Source: Escherichia coli | GTDB taxonomy: Bacteria > Pseudomonadota > Gammaproteobacteria > Enterobacterales > Enterobacteriaceae | Assembly: GCF_048403405.1 (NCBI RefSeq) | Contig: NZ_CP183129.1 | Length of the DNA stretch: 64,000 nucleotides | Direction: 5' to 3' (one strand) | Shown: in pieces, positions 1,105-6,406 of the stretch | How the letters are laid out: each line of letters opens with the position of its first letter | How positions within the stretch are numbered: position 1 is the first letter of the stretch | The notes under the pieces: generated by a model | Seen by the model: the letters and a program-made list of their open reading frames with translations, nothing else | What the model was told of the DNA's origin: nothing | The model's database searches: none | Translations under genes and position numbers: made by a program

Positions 1105-1112
1105 TCTCCCTA

Positions 1113-1146
1113 TGCCCGATAACATTTTGCTTATCGGGCATTTTTA
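1113..1146. terminator. Hairpin terminator between convergent lgoT and tsr
   Basis: Inverted repeat tgcccgataa / ttatcgggca with 8-nt loop, followed by TTTTTA on the + strand. Confidence 0.5.
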
Positions 1147-1152
1147 TGGCGA

Positions 1153-2817
1153 TTAAAACGTTTCCCAGTTCTCCCCGCTATCTGCCACGGCCATTTTACG
1201 CGGCGCAGCTGGCGTCACGGTTTTTACCACAGCCGATGTTTCACGCTGCTGTTGCTGCTGTTGCTGAATCCGGAACACTGCCACAGCTTCGGTCAGGCGA
1301 CTGGCCTGCTCTTCCAGCGCGGCAGCGGCGGCGGCAGATTCTTCCACCAGTGCGGCGTTCTGTTGAGTTACCCGGTCCATCTCAGCAACCGCTAATCCAA
1401 CCTGATCGATACCACGGCTCTGCTCATCAGAAGCAGAAGCAATTTCGCCCATAATGTCCGTCACGCGGGTCACGGCACTGACAATCTCCGCCATTGTTTC
1501 CCCTGCGCTTTCGACCAGCGTAGAGCCAACATCCACTTTCCCCACCGAGTCTTCAATCAGGCTTTTAATTTCACGAGCCGCCTGGGCGCTGCGCTGGGCC
1601 AGATTACGCACTTCTCCCGCGACCACCGCAAAACCGCGCCCTTGCTCACCCGCACGCGCAGCCTCAACCGCCGCGTTCAAAGCCAGAATATTGGTCTGGA
1701 AGGCAATGCCGTCAATTACGCTGATAATATCGGCGATTTTCTGCGAACTGGTGGAGATATCGCGCATAGTCTGCACCACGTTATCTACCACTTTGCCGCC
1801 GCGTTGCGCCGTTTCAGAAGCACTTAACGCCAGATGGCTGGCCTGACGCGCATTCTCGGCGTTCTGTTTCACCGTTGCGGTCAGTTGCTCCATGCTGGCT
1901 GCCGTCTCTTCCAGCGAAGCGGCCTGTTGCTCGGTGCGCGAAGAGAGATCGTTATTGCCGGTGGCGATTTCGCTGGCACCGCTATAAATGGCATTGGCCC
2001 CGTTGCGCACATCACCGACGGTACGCATCAGCTCTCCCTGCATATGGCGCAAACTCTCTGCCAGTTGCCCCATCTCATTAGAGCCATCCACCTCAATCGG
2101 TTTCACCAGATCGCCGCCTGCAATATGACGAATGCTGTCAATCAGGCGATTCATTGGCGCTACCAACGAGGCTTTAATACCGAACCAGACGGCGAAGATG
2201 ACCGCCAGTACGACGATCATCACGCCCACCAGGATCCACATCGCCTGGCTGTAGGAGGCATTATTATCGCTGACGGCGATATCATAGAGCCGATCGTTTT
2301 GCTCCATGTAAGCCACATACTGCTTCTCGAAACCGTCCTGATATCCCTGGGTCGGCTGATCAAAGAACTCGTTGATTTTGCCTGCACCTAACAGTTGGAT
2401 CAGCTCCGCCAGCGCATTGTGATAAATATCGTAATTACGTTTGATCTCTGCCGCTGCGGCGGTGCTCTGACGCGGGTCACGCGGCAACGCTTCGTAATCC
2501 GCCCAGTTTTTTTCCGCCTGTTTCAGCGAAATACTGGCACTCTGCATCAGCTCAGCAACGGTTGAACCGCTACCAATATTATTCTGATCCATCATGTAGC
2601 GGATACCCGCGCGGTTGAGGGTGTTACGCGTCTGCAACAACGCGACCCAGCTGCCATTCAGCGTGGATTGCTGCTGGCGAATGGTTTGTAAAACAGTGAA
2701 ATTTTCTTTGTCATTCTTTAAGGCATTAAAGAACAGACCGCCTGATGTCAGTTGTAAAAGGCCAAAAACGGCCAAAACCAGCAGTAAGCTGGTCACAATT
2801 TTGATACGTTTTAACAT
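1153..2817 (-). CDS. tsr: Methyl-accepting chemotaxis protein I (serine chemoreceptor)
   Basis: 554-aa ORF; N-terminal TM segment, periplasmic ligand domain, HAMP, conserved MCP signalling domain, C-terminal NWETF pentapeptide; recognised as Tsr. Confidence 0.95.
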
Positions 2818-2935: not shown

Positions 2936-3382
2936 TTATTCATTATCGCCCGGGATGTCTTCTTGTCGGGAATTACCCAGAGCAATAAATTCCTCTAACA
3001 GATGGGTTAACTGTTGCATTTTCTCGGCAGTAAACTGAGCTTCAATCTGCCGATAGGCCTCTTCAATCTGTGTCTGAGCGCGGTTATACAGCGCCTGCCC
3101 CTCTTTGGTCAGCGAGATATAGAGCTTCCGCTGATCATTGATCGGCTTTAATCGCAACACTAAACCGTCGCGTTCCATCCGCGTAAGGATCCCGGTCAGG
3201 CTTGGGCGCAAAATGCAGGCGCGATACGCCAGATCGTGAAAATCCATTGATGGGCTTTCCGCCAGAATACGCACGATGCGCCACTGTTGCTCAGTCAAAT
3301 TATGCCGTTTAACGATTGGGCGAAAATAACTCATCGCCGCTTCTCGCGCCTGGAGCAACGCAATGGTTAGAGAGTCGTGCAT
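2936..3382 (-). CDS. hpaR: MarR-family repressor of the homoprotocatechuate (hpa meta-cleavage) operon
   Basis: ORF track gives 175 aa; the internal Met (MHDSLTIALLQ...) gives a 148-aa MarR-type winged-helix protein recognised as HpaR; divergent from hpaG. Confidence 0.85.
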   Translation of the reverse strand: MHDSLTIALLQAREAAMSYFRPIVKRHNLTEQQWRIVRILAESPSMDFHDLAYRACILRPSLTGILTRMERDGLVLRLKPINDQRKLYISLTKEGQALYNRAQTQIEEAYRQIEAQFTAEKMQQLTHLLEEFIALGNSRQEDIPGDNE

Positions 3383-3604
3383 TATCTTTCCCCTGAAAAA
3401 TTCAAAATCATTAATATAGAAACAGTTAATCATCACGTTACCGGGACTGCGCTGCCCCTGCAATTCTTCATTTTATCAAAATTGAGCATGTTTTGTTAAC
3501 TTGCTGATATTTAATATTTTATTATCTTTAAATGTAAATAGTTTGTTAATTAGATCACATTTACATCACTTACTTTTGCCAAACTACGCAATCGGGAATA
3601 AAAG

Positions 3605-3628: not shown

Positions 3629-3653
3629 AGATGATCGAATCCGAGGAGTGGTA

Positions 3654-4943
3654 ATGAAAGGCACTATCTTCGCCGTAGCGTTGAACCATCGCAGCCAGCT
3701 TGATGCATGGCAGGAAGCGTTCCAGCAATCCCCCTACAAAACCCCGCCTAAAACTGCGGTCTGGTTTATTAAACCGCGCAATACGGTGATTGGTTGCGGT
3801 GAACCGATTCCCTTTCCACAGGGTGAAAAAGTACTGAGCGGTGCGACTGTTGCGCTGATTGTGGGGAAAACGGCGACGAAAGTACGTGAAGAAGATGCGG
3901 CAGAGTACATCGCCGGATATGCGCTGGCTAACGACGTCAGCCTGCCGGAAGAGAGCTTTTACCGCCCGGCAATCAAAGCAAAATGTCGTGATGGATTCTG
4001 CCCCATTGGCGAAACCGTGGCTCCCAGCAATGTCGATAATCTGACTATCTATACCGAGATCAACGGGCGTCCTGCCGATCATTGGAACACCGCCGATTTA
4101 CAACGTAACGCCGCGCAGTTGCTGAGCGCTCTGAGCGAATTTGCCACGCTGAATCCAGGCGATGCCATTCTGCTCGGCACGCCACAGGCGCGCGTGGAAA
4201 TACAGCCAGGCGATCGCGTGCGTGTTCTCGCAGAAGGTTTCCCGCCACTGGAAAATCCGGTAGTGGACGAACGTGAAGTGACCACGCGCAAGAGCTTCCC
4301 AACGCAGCCACACCCGCACGGCACGCTGTTTGCCCTCGGCCTGAACTACGCCGACCACGCCAGCGAACTGGAATTTAAGCCACCGGAAGAACCGCTGGTG
4401 TTCCTGAAAGCGCCGAATACCCTCACTGGCGATAACCAGACCTCCGTGCGCCCGAACAATATTGAATACATGCACTACGAAGCGGAGCTGGTGGTAGTTA
4501 TTGGCAAGCAGGCGCGTAACGTCAGCGAAGCCGATGCCATGGATTATGTCGCGGGCTACACCGTGTGTAACGACTACGCCATTCGCGACTATCTGGAAAA
4601 CTACTACCGCCCTAACCTGCGGGTAAAAAGCCGCGACGGACTGACGCCGATGCTTTCAACCATCGTGCCGAAAGAGGCGATCCCGGACCCGCATAATCTG
4701 ACCCTTCGCACCTTCGTCAACGGCGAGTTACGCCAGCAAGGCACCACCGCCGATCTGATCTTCAGCGTGCCCTTCCTGATCGCCTACTTAAGCGAATTTA
4801 TGACCCTGAATCCGGGCGACATGATCGCCACCGGCACACCAAAAGGCTTATCTGACGTGGTGCCTGGCGATGAAGTAGTGGTGGAAGTAGAAGGCGTGGG
4901 CCGCCTGGTGAACCGAATTGTGAGTGAGGAAACAGCGAAATGA
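3654..4943 (+). CDS. hpaG: Bifunctional 5-carboxymethyl-2-oxo-hex-3-ene-1,7-dioate decarboxylase / 2-hydroxyhepta-2,4-diene-1,7-dioate isomerase
   Basis: 429 aa from ATG 3654 with GAGGAG RBS at 3644-3649; duplicated FAH-family domain; recognised as HpaG. Confidence 0.9.
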   Translation: MKGTIFAVALNHRSQLDAWQEAFQQSPYKTPPKTAVWFIKPRNTVIGCGEPIPFPQGEKVLSGATVALIVGKTATKVREEDAAEYIAGYALANDVSLPEESFYRPAIKAKCRDGFCPIGETVAPSNVDNLTIYTEINGRPADHWNTADLQRNAAQLLSALSEFATLNPGDAILLGTPQARVEIQPGDRVRVLAEGFPPLENPVVDEREVTTRKSFPTQPHPHGTLFALGLNYADHASELEFKPPEEPLVFLKAPNTLTGDNQTSVRPNNIEYMHYEAELVVVIGKQARNVSEADAMDYVAGYTVCNDYAIRDYLENYYRPNLRVKSRDGLTPMLSTIVPKEAIPDPHNLTLRTFVNGELRQQGTTADLIFSVPFLIAYLSEFMTLNPGDMIATGTPKGLSDVVPGDEVVVEVEGVGRLVNRIVSEETAK

Positions 4944-6406
4944 AAAAAGTAAATCATTGGATCAACGGCAAAAATGTTGCAGGTAACGACTACTTCCAGA
5001 CCACCAATCCGGCAACGGGTGAAGTGCTGGCAGATGTGGCCTCCGGCGGTGAAGCGGAGATCAATCAGGCGGTAGCGGCAGCGAAAGAGGCGTTCCCGAA
5101 ATGGGCCAATCTGCCGATGAAAGAGCGTGCGCGCCTGATGCGCCGTCTGGGCGATCTGATCGACCAGAACGTGCCTGAGATCGCCGCGATGGAAACCGCG
5201 GACACGGGCCTGCCGATCCATCAGACCAAAAATGTATTGATCCCACGCGCTTCTCACAACTTTGAATTTTTCGCGGAAGTCTGCCAGCAGATGAACGGCA
5301 AGACCTATCCGGTTGACGACAAGATGCTCAACTACACGCTGGTGCAACCGGTAGGCGTTTGTGCGCTGGTATCGCCGTGGAACGTGCCGTTTATGACCGC
5401 CACATGGAAGGTCGCGCCGTGTCTGGCGCTGGGCAATACCGCGGTGTTGAAAATGTCGGAACTCTCCCCGCTGACCGCTGACCGCCTGGGTGAGCTGGCG
5501 CTGGAAGCCGGTATTCCGGCGGGCGTGCTGAACGTGGTACAGGGCTACGGCGCAACCGCAGGCGATGCGCTGGTTCGTCATCATGACGTACGTGCCGTGT
5601 CGTTCACCGGCGGTACGGCCACCGGGCGCAACATCATGAAAAACGCCGGGCTGAAAAAATACTCCATGGAACTGGGCGGTAAATCGCCGGTGCTGATTTT
5701 TGAAGATGCCGATATTGAACGCGCGCTGGACGCTGCCCTGTTCACCATCTTCTCGATCAACGGCGAGCGCTGCACCGCCGGTTCGCGCATCTTTATTCAG
5801 CAAAGCATCTACCCGGAATTCGTTAAACGCTTTGCCGAACGCGCCAACCGTCTGCGCGTGGGCGATCCGAACGATCCGAATACCCAGGTTGGGGCGCTTA
5901 TCAGCCAGCAACACTGGGAAAAAGTCTCCGGCTATATTCGTCTCGGCATTGAAGAAGGCGCAACCCTGCTAGCGGGCGGTCCGGATAAACCGTCCGACCT
6001 GCCTGCGCACCTGAAAGGCGGCAACTTCCTGCGCCCAACGGTGCTGGCTGACGTTGATAACCGTATGCGCGTCGCCCAGGAAGAGATTTTCGGGCCGGTC
6101 GCCTGTCTGCTGCCGTTTAAAGACGAAGCTGAAGGTCTGCGCCTGGCAAATGACGTGGAGTATGGCCTCGCGTCGTACATCTGGACGCAGGATGTCAGCA
6201 AAGTGTTACGCCTGGCGCGTGGCATTGAAGCAGGCATGGTGTTCGTCAACACCCAGAACGTGCGCGACCTGCGCCAGCCGTTTGGCGGCGTAAAAGCCTC
6301 CGGCACCGGGCGTGAAGGCGGTGAGTACAGCTTCGAAGTGTTCGCGGAAATGAAGAACGTCTGCATTTCCATGGGCGACCATCCAATTCCGAAATGGGGA
6401 GTCTGA
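4940..6406 (+). CDS. hpaE: 5-carboxymethyl-2-hydroxymuconate semialdehyde dehydrogenase (NAD-dependent aldehyde dehydrogenase)
   Basis: 488 aa; ATGA start/stop overlap with hpaG; aldehyde dehydrogenase family with catalytic Cys region (FSINGERCTAGSR). Confidence 0.9.
   Translation: MKKVNHWINGKNVAGNDYFQTTNPATGEVLADVASGGEAEINQAVAAAKEAFPKWANLPMKERARLMRRLGDLIDQNVPEIAAMETADTGLPIHQTKNVLIPRASHNFEFFAEVCQQMNGKTYPVDDKMLNYTLVQPVGVCALVSPWNVPFMTATWKVAPCLALGNTAVLKMSELSPLTADRLGELALEAGIPAGVLNVVQGYGATAGDALVRHHDVRAVSFTGGTATGRNIMKNAGLKKYSMELGGKSPVLIFEDADIERALDAALFTIFSINGERCTAGSRIFIQQSIYPEFVKRFAERANRLRVGDPNDPNTQVGALISQQHWEKVSGYIRLGIEEGATLLAGGPDKPSDLPAHLKGGNFLRPTVLADVDNRMRVAQEEIFGPVACLLPFKDEAEGLRLANDVEYGLASYIWTQDVSKVLRLARGIEAGMVFVNTQNVRDLRQPFGGVKASGTGREGGEYSFEVFAEMKNVCISMGDHPIPKWGV

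Follow-up and report, generated by a model that had tools for sequence, protein, structure and literature searches.

The nearest described analogue, in Escherichia coli, of the repeat reported here is the intragenic repeat of tolA, which is built of 15-base units present in 8–16 copies, with 13 repeats found in 66% of 234 E. coli strains. Its clonal contraction (6.9e-5) is RecA-dependent and its phenotypes have been demonstrated (Zhou, Michiels & Aertsen 2012, PMC3477136). Phase-variable simple-sequence contingency loci likewise depend on an intragenic repeat that drives length change. For the protein segment affected here, the closest reference is the C-terminal tether of the serine chemoreceptor Tsr of strain K-12 (IQQQQRETS...SEENWETF), which is 30 residues long when counted from I517 (Yue et al. 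2023, PMC10561060) and precedes the pentapeptide NWETF, the docking site for CheR and CheB (PMC7390727, PMC10561060). In the work cited by PMC10561060, disorder of the pentapeptide tether was shown experimentally for Tar only. Engineered Tar tethers of 22, 29, 34 and 46 residues displaced the CheR peak, x0, by 0.128 ± 0.048 nm per residue, and tether length in Tar altered adaptation behaviour (Yue et al. 2023, PMC10561060); further engineered length variants are the truncated linkers of Li & Hazelbauer 2006, as cited in PMC10561060. Yue et al. explained a Tsr tether shorter than the 34 residues of Tar as a match to methylation-site distances (PMC10561060), a rationale that holds for the K-12 allele only.

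We analysed tsr in a 64-kb stretch of E. coli DNA, referred to here as the window, in which the tether begins with a tract of seven glutamines. Like the tolA repeat, this tract lies in frame in an E. coli gene, varies naturally in copy number around a dominant allele (two units, ~75% for tsr) and makes an extended or flexible part of the protein longer or shorter; unlike it, the tsr repeat consists of 9-base units in only 1–4 copies, is apparently stable within clones and is known from sequence. It also departs from contingency loci, as its units are a multiple of 3 and keep the frame, it has very few copies and separate assemblies of one strain give the same length, so that it provides no on/off switch. 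Compared with the K-12 tether, the window has the same gene, the same position, the same NWETF site and the same disordered, non-conserved character, with one QQQ unit more (33 versus 30 residues) and glycine instead of glutamate at residue 548. The engineered Tar variants and the tsr alleles alike change the length of a pentapeptide tether; the former are artificial and differ by 5–12 residues, whereas the latter are natural, proceed in 3-residue steps and do so at the helix-proximal end.

The tsr gene and its C-terminal tether

The window protein is Tsr by full-length family match, domain set and pentapeptide. It aligns over residues 1–554 of 554 to the NCBIfam equivalog NF011615 (PRK15041) with 1225 bits, against a cutoff of 947; the runner-up family, Tar (NF011622), scores 752 bits and stays under its own cutoff of 900. 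The TarH, HAMP and MCPsignal domains (PF02203, PF00672, PF00015) are recorded for matches at 100% (rounded) identity, the C-terminus is NWETF, as expected of Tsr, and the annotation tsr is given in every matching RefSeq genome. Serine sensing and signalling are suggested by the ~99% identity to K-12 Tsr outside the tract. The features of the gene and its surroundings are collected in Table 1.

Table 1. Positions of the features at and around tsr (window numbering)
Feature	Position	Strand	Description and basis
tsr CDS, serine chemoreceptor (methyl-accepting chemotaxis protein I)	1153..2817	-	554 aa + stop; ORF list, NF011615
C-terminal tether (linker)	1171..1269	-	I517–E549, 33 residues (K-12: 30); non-conserved, predicted disordered
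Q tract	1246..1266	-	residues Q518–Q524 of Tsr; sequence, TRF and alleles read in L001–L011
Q-tract unit 1, CAGCAACAG	1266..1258	-	perfect 9-base unit, encodes QQQ
Q-tract unit 2, CAGCAACAG	1257..1249	-	perfect 9-base unit, encodes QQQ
Trailing CAG after the two units	1248..1246	-	sequence
NWETF pentapeptide, CheR/CheB docking site	1156..1170	-	residues 550–554; translation, alignment of 48 homologues
Residue 548	1174..1176	-	G in the window
Ala tract	1318..1335	-	A495–A500 (GCC GCC GCC GCT GCC GCG), last signalling-domain helix
Hairpin	1112..1141		11-pair stem between convergent tsr and lgoT; probable bidirectional intrinsic terminator
hpaR (presumed)	2936..3463	-	
hpaG (presumed)	3648..4943	+	
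hpaE (presumed)	4940..6406	+	
Antisense ORF overlying tsr	1146..1454	+	rejected

The limits of the tether were drawn from conservation and from a structural model. Across an alignment of 48 homologues, the invariant columns end at F515 and restart at E552, continuing through F554; within the pentapeptide, N550 and W551 are nearly invariant and E552, T553 and F554 are invariant. In the AlphaFold2 model of the window protein (mean pLDDT 71.9), confidence is below 50 from residue 517 on (517–519 and 521–554), and the last helix is drawn to residue 522 at pLDDT <50, a level at which the model does not decide between a helical and a flexible tract. The segment, of a length in the range of ~30–35 residues, non-conserved, predicted to be unstructured and placed ahead of an NWETF-type end, has the properties of a pentapeptide tether, and the Q tract makes up its first residues, at the helix-proximal end. 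The first-pass annotation had described a seven-glutamine CAG/CAA tract on the minus strand at 1246–1266, in a 554-aa ORF set against a 551-aa K-12 Tsr with a shorter run, and had placed it in the flexible tether before NWETF. Direct reading bears out the tract, and the lengths hold as well, K-12 having 4 Q; the placement agrees with the alignment limits (F515/E552), with the pLDDT below 50 from residue 517 and with the I517 start used in PMC10561060.

Variation in tsr is found outside the Q tract too. The Ala tract is length-variable, with 5 Ala in AF57 (L002) and in protein P0064 and 4 Ala in P0093, and the loss of a residue from this coiled-coil helix should shift its register. An in-frame tandem duplication of 33 bases (11 aa) is present near the Ala tract in strain 2013C-3492 (L005, NZ_CP027445), at about window 1340..1372. 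Longer proteins include P0028 (570 aa), with a 16-aa tandem duplication in the HAMP domain, and P0086 (568 aa), with a 14-aa, two-heptad tandem duplication in the methylation helix.

The gene is flanked by lgoT on one side and by the hpa operon (4-hydroxyphenylacetate degradation) on the other, where we take three ORFs (Table 1) to be hpaR, hpaG and hpaE. The RefSeq annotation of identical genomes gives hpaE, hpaG and hpaX in the hpa region, and the window's first 12 kb are matched at 100% identity by the chromosomes of several E. coli isolates from humans. At least 80% of these 12 kb is covered in only 2,018 of 5,426 genomes, which indicates that the neighbourhood is variable. In five of the loci read (L002, L004, L007, L009 and L011), tsr is followed by a gene for the large permease of a TRAP transporter, not by lgoT, and in the TRAP-transporter lineages similarity ends within a few bases past the tsr stop codon. 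The hairpin between the convergent tsr and lgoT has T or A runs on both sides and is probably a bidirectional intrinsic terminator. The antisense ORF overlying tsr was rejected, being without any support.

A nine-base repeat and its alleles in E. coli

Read on the minus strand from 1266 to 1246, the tract is CAG CAA CAG CAG CAA CAG CAG, in which CAA breaks up the CAG tract every third codon. A run of seven glutamines has a chance probability of ~9e-6 given the composition of Tsr, and no other exact period-9 21-mer occurs in the 64 kb of the window, nor any in the shuffled sequence; the tract is a non-chance feature. TRF recovers it at 1245..1266 with a period of 9 (100% matches, 2.4 copies, score 44), as against 78% matches and a score of 30 with a period of 3. 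The repeat unit is 9 bases, CAGCAACAG (QQQ), rather than 3. Two units stand head to tail in the window, with a length that is a multiple of 3, and copy number differs from strain to strain in whole-unit steps (1, 2, 3 and 4 units). The tract is, in these terms, a low-copy, in-frame, intragenic variable-number repeat, present in the window as its two-unit allele. In K-12 MG1655, whose Tsr has 551 aa, the corresponding codons are CAG CAA CAG CAG (4 Q), and the window has exactly one CAGCAACAG unit more. Measured after 'VF' and before NWETF, the tail is 34 residues long in the 7-Q allele and 31 in K-12.

The distribution of alleles was estimated over 5,426 complete E. coli genomes, 5,382 of which were matched by a 95-nt probe for the 7-Q allele. 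This probe matched 4,058 genomes at 95% identity or above, where all 45 sampled rows span the full 95 nt, and 1,324 genomes below 95%, where all 15 sampled rows span 86 nt, the length expected of 4 Q; a 4-Q probe gave the mirror image of this result. Full coverage of a 10-Q probe was obtained in 68 genomes, among them HS, LF82, NRG 857C, A0 34/86 and MP1, and of a 13-Q probe in 3. The estimated counts among the 5,382 genomes are ~4,055 for 7 Q (75%), ~1,256 for 4 Q (23%, K-12 included), 68 for 10 Q and 3 for 13 Q; as they derive from identity bands and sampled rows, rare 5-, 6- or 8-Q alleles could have escaped them where the flank carries two or more SNPs. No full-length match, exact or with one SNP, was obtained with 8-Q or 5-Q probes in the complete E. 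coli genomes, and the identity band expected for 6 Q contained 2 records only (4-Q probe). Local megablast of the probes on synthetic alleles reproduced all observed bands without further alleles. The same simulation accounts for the 750 records (8-Q probe) and the single record (5-Q probe) at 99% identity or above, which arise where 4-Q and 10-Q alleles align to the probe in two pieces or in trimmed form.

Alleles were also read directly, and all of them consist of n units followed by CAG, with n from 1 to 4. One unit is present in K-12, 14EC047 and 729_270514; two in the window, Nissle, AF57, SW4848, RM13322 and 2013C-3492; three in HS and LF82 (L010/L011); and four in RM14723 (L009). Among the best 120 proteins in the search, which comprise E. 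coli and Shigella alleles only, the tract has seven residues in 117 (a few with one Q to H change and one reading QQEQQRQ) and four residues in 3. Proteins of 552, 553, 555, 568 and 570 aa were considered as single-codon Q variants and rejected, their lengths being due to indels elsewhere. Among the genomes and proteins covered, the E. coli tract thus varies in whole units only, to 4, 7, 10 or 13 Q. The 7-Q form is the majority allele in E. coli and the 4 Q of K-12 is a minority form.

Certain records of the census stand apart. There was no match to the tsr 3' end in 44 of the 5,426 genomes, three tsr 3'-end matches sit on plasmid-typed records, and the tsr of RM13322 is annotated as a frameshifted pseudogene. 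All of the tsr alleles already sit in public databases, and the polymorphism is apparently undescribed: the open-access literature searched yielded no account of Q-tract or repeat variation in tsr.

The first-pass annotation had taken the tract for a trinucleotide repeat that changes length by slippage and had staked this on K-12 and most strains not having the same seven-Q tract. Of this, the difference in length between strains stands, although the unit is 9 bases and the alleles are restricted to 4, 7, 10 and 13 Q; most strains (~75%) do have seven Q, and K-12, with four, does not. Nor is the window tract a longer, unusual allele, as had been implied, given that ~75% of genomes carry 7 Q and that its tail has the length most common in other genera. 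More generally, it might be argued that a CAG/CAA repeat slips codon by codon and that the window represents an expansion over a K-12-like norm, as the tract contains only CAG and CAA codons and is three codons longer than in K-12. A trinucleotide (CAG) microsatellite would be expected to show purity at period 3 (78%, against 100% for period 9) and single-codon alleles (5 Q and 8 Q were not found, and 6 Q in at most two genomes), and its premise of a K-12-like norm conflicts with 7 Q being both the majority form and the one with the ancestral tail length. We consider this explanation very improbable and already largely refuted.

Errors of sequencing or assembly in a stretch of low complexity might be invoked for the length differences, since some long-read assemblies can miscall short repeats. 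This possibility is virtually negligible, because the classes are separated by whole multiples of 9 bases and never lose the frame, and because independent assemblies of the same strain agree for HS, 8178 and K-12.

Ancestry and recurrence of the length changes

The direction of change was approached through Tsr orthologues of Leclercia, Enterobacter, Citrobacter, Kluyvera and related genera among the species-representative matches listed. Among these matches, the proteins are 553–557 aa long, and their tails measure 33–37 residues with a mode of 34 and begin with motifs that are rich in Q but interrupted, for example QQDQQKA and QQEQQKA. At 554 aa, two sequences closer to the window are colinear with it residue for residue. 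The first is a metagenome contig (L086) with 97.5% DNA identity, in which the same MFS-transporter gene lies downstream; its tract is CAG CAA GAG CAG CAA CGC CAG, encoding QQEQQRQ; the second (L038, 89% identical) reads CAG CAA GCG CAA CAG CGT CAG, encoding QQAQQRQ. An interrupted allele of the L038 type had no megablast match among the E. coli genomes and lies outside mainstream E. coli.

A seven-residue segment of the form (QQx)(QQx)Q thus appears to be old. Because its interrupted version is found at the same position in close relatives, both the perfect repeat and the instability of length that comes with it would be derived within E. coli: an old, imperfect segment would have turned length-unstable on becoming a perfect 9-base repeat. 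Judged by these comparisons, 4 Q is likely to have arisen by contraction, and both 10 Q and 13 Q by expansion, our confidence here being that in the account as a whole; this direction rests on two Escherichia-like sequences and the more distant genera, a set without E. albertii, E. fergusonii and Salmonella. K-12 would, with the same good probability, carry a one-unit contraction. As the units are identical, 7 Q could also be a re-duplication from a 4-Q intermediate, in which case 'ancestral' describes the length and maybe not the allele.

Residue 548 offers a separate observation on the same tail. It is G in the window and in Nissle (SGENWETF) and E in K-12 (SEENWETF); G occupies this position in nearly all of 25 outgroup orthologues and in all those at 80% identity or above. 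The E of K-12, at 7 residues from the C-terminus, is probably derived too.

The recurrence of the changes was assessed by comparing the flanks of the tract, over 40 nt on the upstream side and 87 nt on the downstream side. In three strain pairs the flanks match exactly while the tracts are one unit apart: RM13322 with 7 Q against HS with 10 Q, AF57 with 7 Q against 729_270514 with 4 Q, and LF82 with 10 Q against RM14723 with 13 Q. Two sites near the tract are polymorphic, one 19 bases upstream of it and the other 7 bases downstream, and at each of them either base is seen with both 4 Q and 7 Q. The protein P0095 combines 4 Q with a tail exactly as in the window, and 4 Q is found on at least three flank or tail types. 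Since identical flanking haplotypes carry different unit numbers, units have been gained or lost repeatedly, with independent recurrence on three flank pairs, as defined by flank haplotypes and not by whole-genome phylogeny.

Shared flanks could also have arisen if each length class originated once and was then spread over tsr backgrounds by homologous recombination. E. coli recombines often, and the occurrence of the tsr 3' end beside either lgoT or a TRAP transporter implies that the region has been exchanged; such a spread would nevertheless require breakpoints within a few bases on both sides of the tract, as set by the sites 19 bases upstream and 7 bases downstream, and in the three pairs that share their flanks a single unit is the only difference. 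We regard a single origin per class as quite unlikely. Recurrent gain and loss of units explains the shared flanks better, and short-patch recombination could yield some of the sharing.

Over shorter times the locus appears quiet. Assemblies of the same strain agree, with 10 Q in four records of HS and in three records of 8178 and 4 Q in many records of K-12, and no within-clone instability was seen across the repeat assemblies of HS, 8178 and K-12 derivatives, which amount to a coarse test. The locus varies on a phylogenetic and not on a culture time scale, without fast switching. Phase variation was considered and rejected, the units being in frame and the tract stable within clones.

Substitutions are also seen within the tract: 12 of the 120 closest proteins read QQQQQHQ (P0015, P0016, P0017, P0025 and eight others), and one, P0026, reads QQQQQQH. 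Such Q to H changes interrupt the otherwise exact 9-base repeat and should make tract length more stable in the lineages that carry them.

Proposed mechanism of length change and possible effects on adaptation

On balance, we think it likely that the tract is a two-unit allele of an in-frame copy-number repeat at the start of the disordered CheR/CheB tether and that it has undergone recurrent whole-unit change. The 7-Q tract holds two overlapping 12-base direct repeats, CAGCAACAGCAG. Overlapping direct repeats are a standard substrate for replication misalignment or unequal exchange. Units could be gained or lost by misalignment between the two 9-base units, through replication slippage or unequal recombination, over 12 bases of overlapping homology. 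The absence of single-codon steps may have two reasons: the CAA interruptions would limit pure CAG runs to two codons, and mismatch repair would correct 3-base but not 9-base loops, in line with its targeting of bulges of 1–4 bases (PMC3477136). As the loss of one unit leaves no 9-base repeat, 4 Q should rarely revert.

For the protein, each unit would add three residues and ~1.1 nm of contour length to the tether. An added unit would probably shift the zone in which tethered CheR concentrates and so bring about a modest change in methylation rate, which may be negligible. Equation 7 of PMC10561060, with its Tar-fitted parameters, was extrapolated to Tsr tethers of 30, 33, 36 and 39 residues. 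By this calculation, CheR would be ~26% less dense per added unit at the receptor's own main methylation sites (13–43% over the slope uncertainty), an estimate that leaves out action on neighbouring receptors and assumes a flexible tract. The effect of tract length on adaptation kinetics that the first-pass annotation had suggested is plausible by analogy with the engineered Tar tethers. A stronger version, in which the QQQ polymorphism is a natural tether-length dial (30, 33, 36 and 39 residues) that measurably sets the speed and precision of Tsr adaptation and the number of neighbours within reach of each tethered CheR, seems doubtful to us.

A related proposal is that selection keeps tether lengths in each lineage for the speed or precision of adaptation to serine or AI-2. 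It can draw on the change in adaptation behaviour caused by engineered Tar tether lengths, on the narrow range of tails in close genera (33–37 residues), on the concentration of 10 Q mostly in one haplotype group, which includes LF82, NRG 857C, A0 34/86 and several mouse isolates, and on an extrapolated effect of tens of percent per unit. The same lineage pattern would, however, be produced by neutral change inherited clonally; the 4-Q allele functions well in K-12, the model organism of chemotaxis; and enzymes tethered in the array also serve neighbours, including Tar with its own tether, so that small differences would be buffered. We hold such adaptive tuning to be rather unlikely.

The window itself is of little significance here, as it carries the standard E. 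coli allele of a very well studied gene, and a new mechanism is not indicated. The wider meaning is modest and includes a caution against taking K-12 as typical of the species. Quantitative work on Tsr adaptation has been done almost entirely in K-12, whose tether is three residues shorter than that of about three quarters of E. coli and also shorter than in any close genus examined. If the reading as a length dial were true, the LF82/O83 group (10 Q) or K-12 (4 Q) would differ from typical 7-Q E. coli, and quantitative chemotaxis models based on K-12 would be slightly off for the species. The natural 4-, 7-, 10- and 13-Q alleles form a ready length series for models of tethered CheR and CheB in Tsr.
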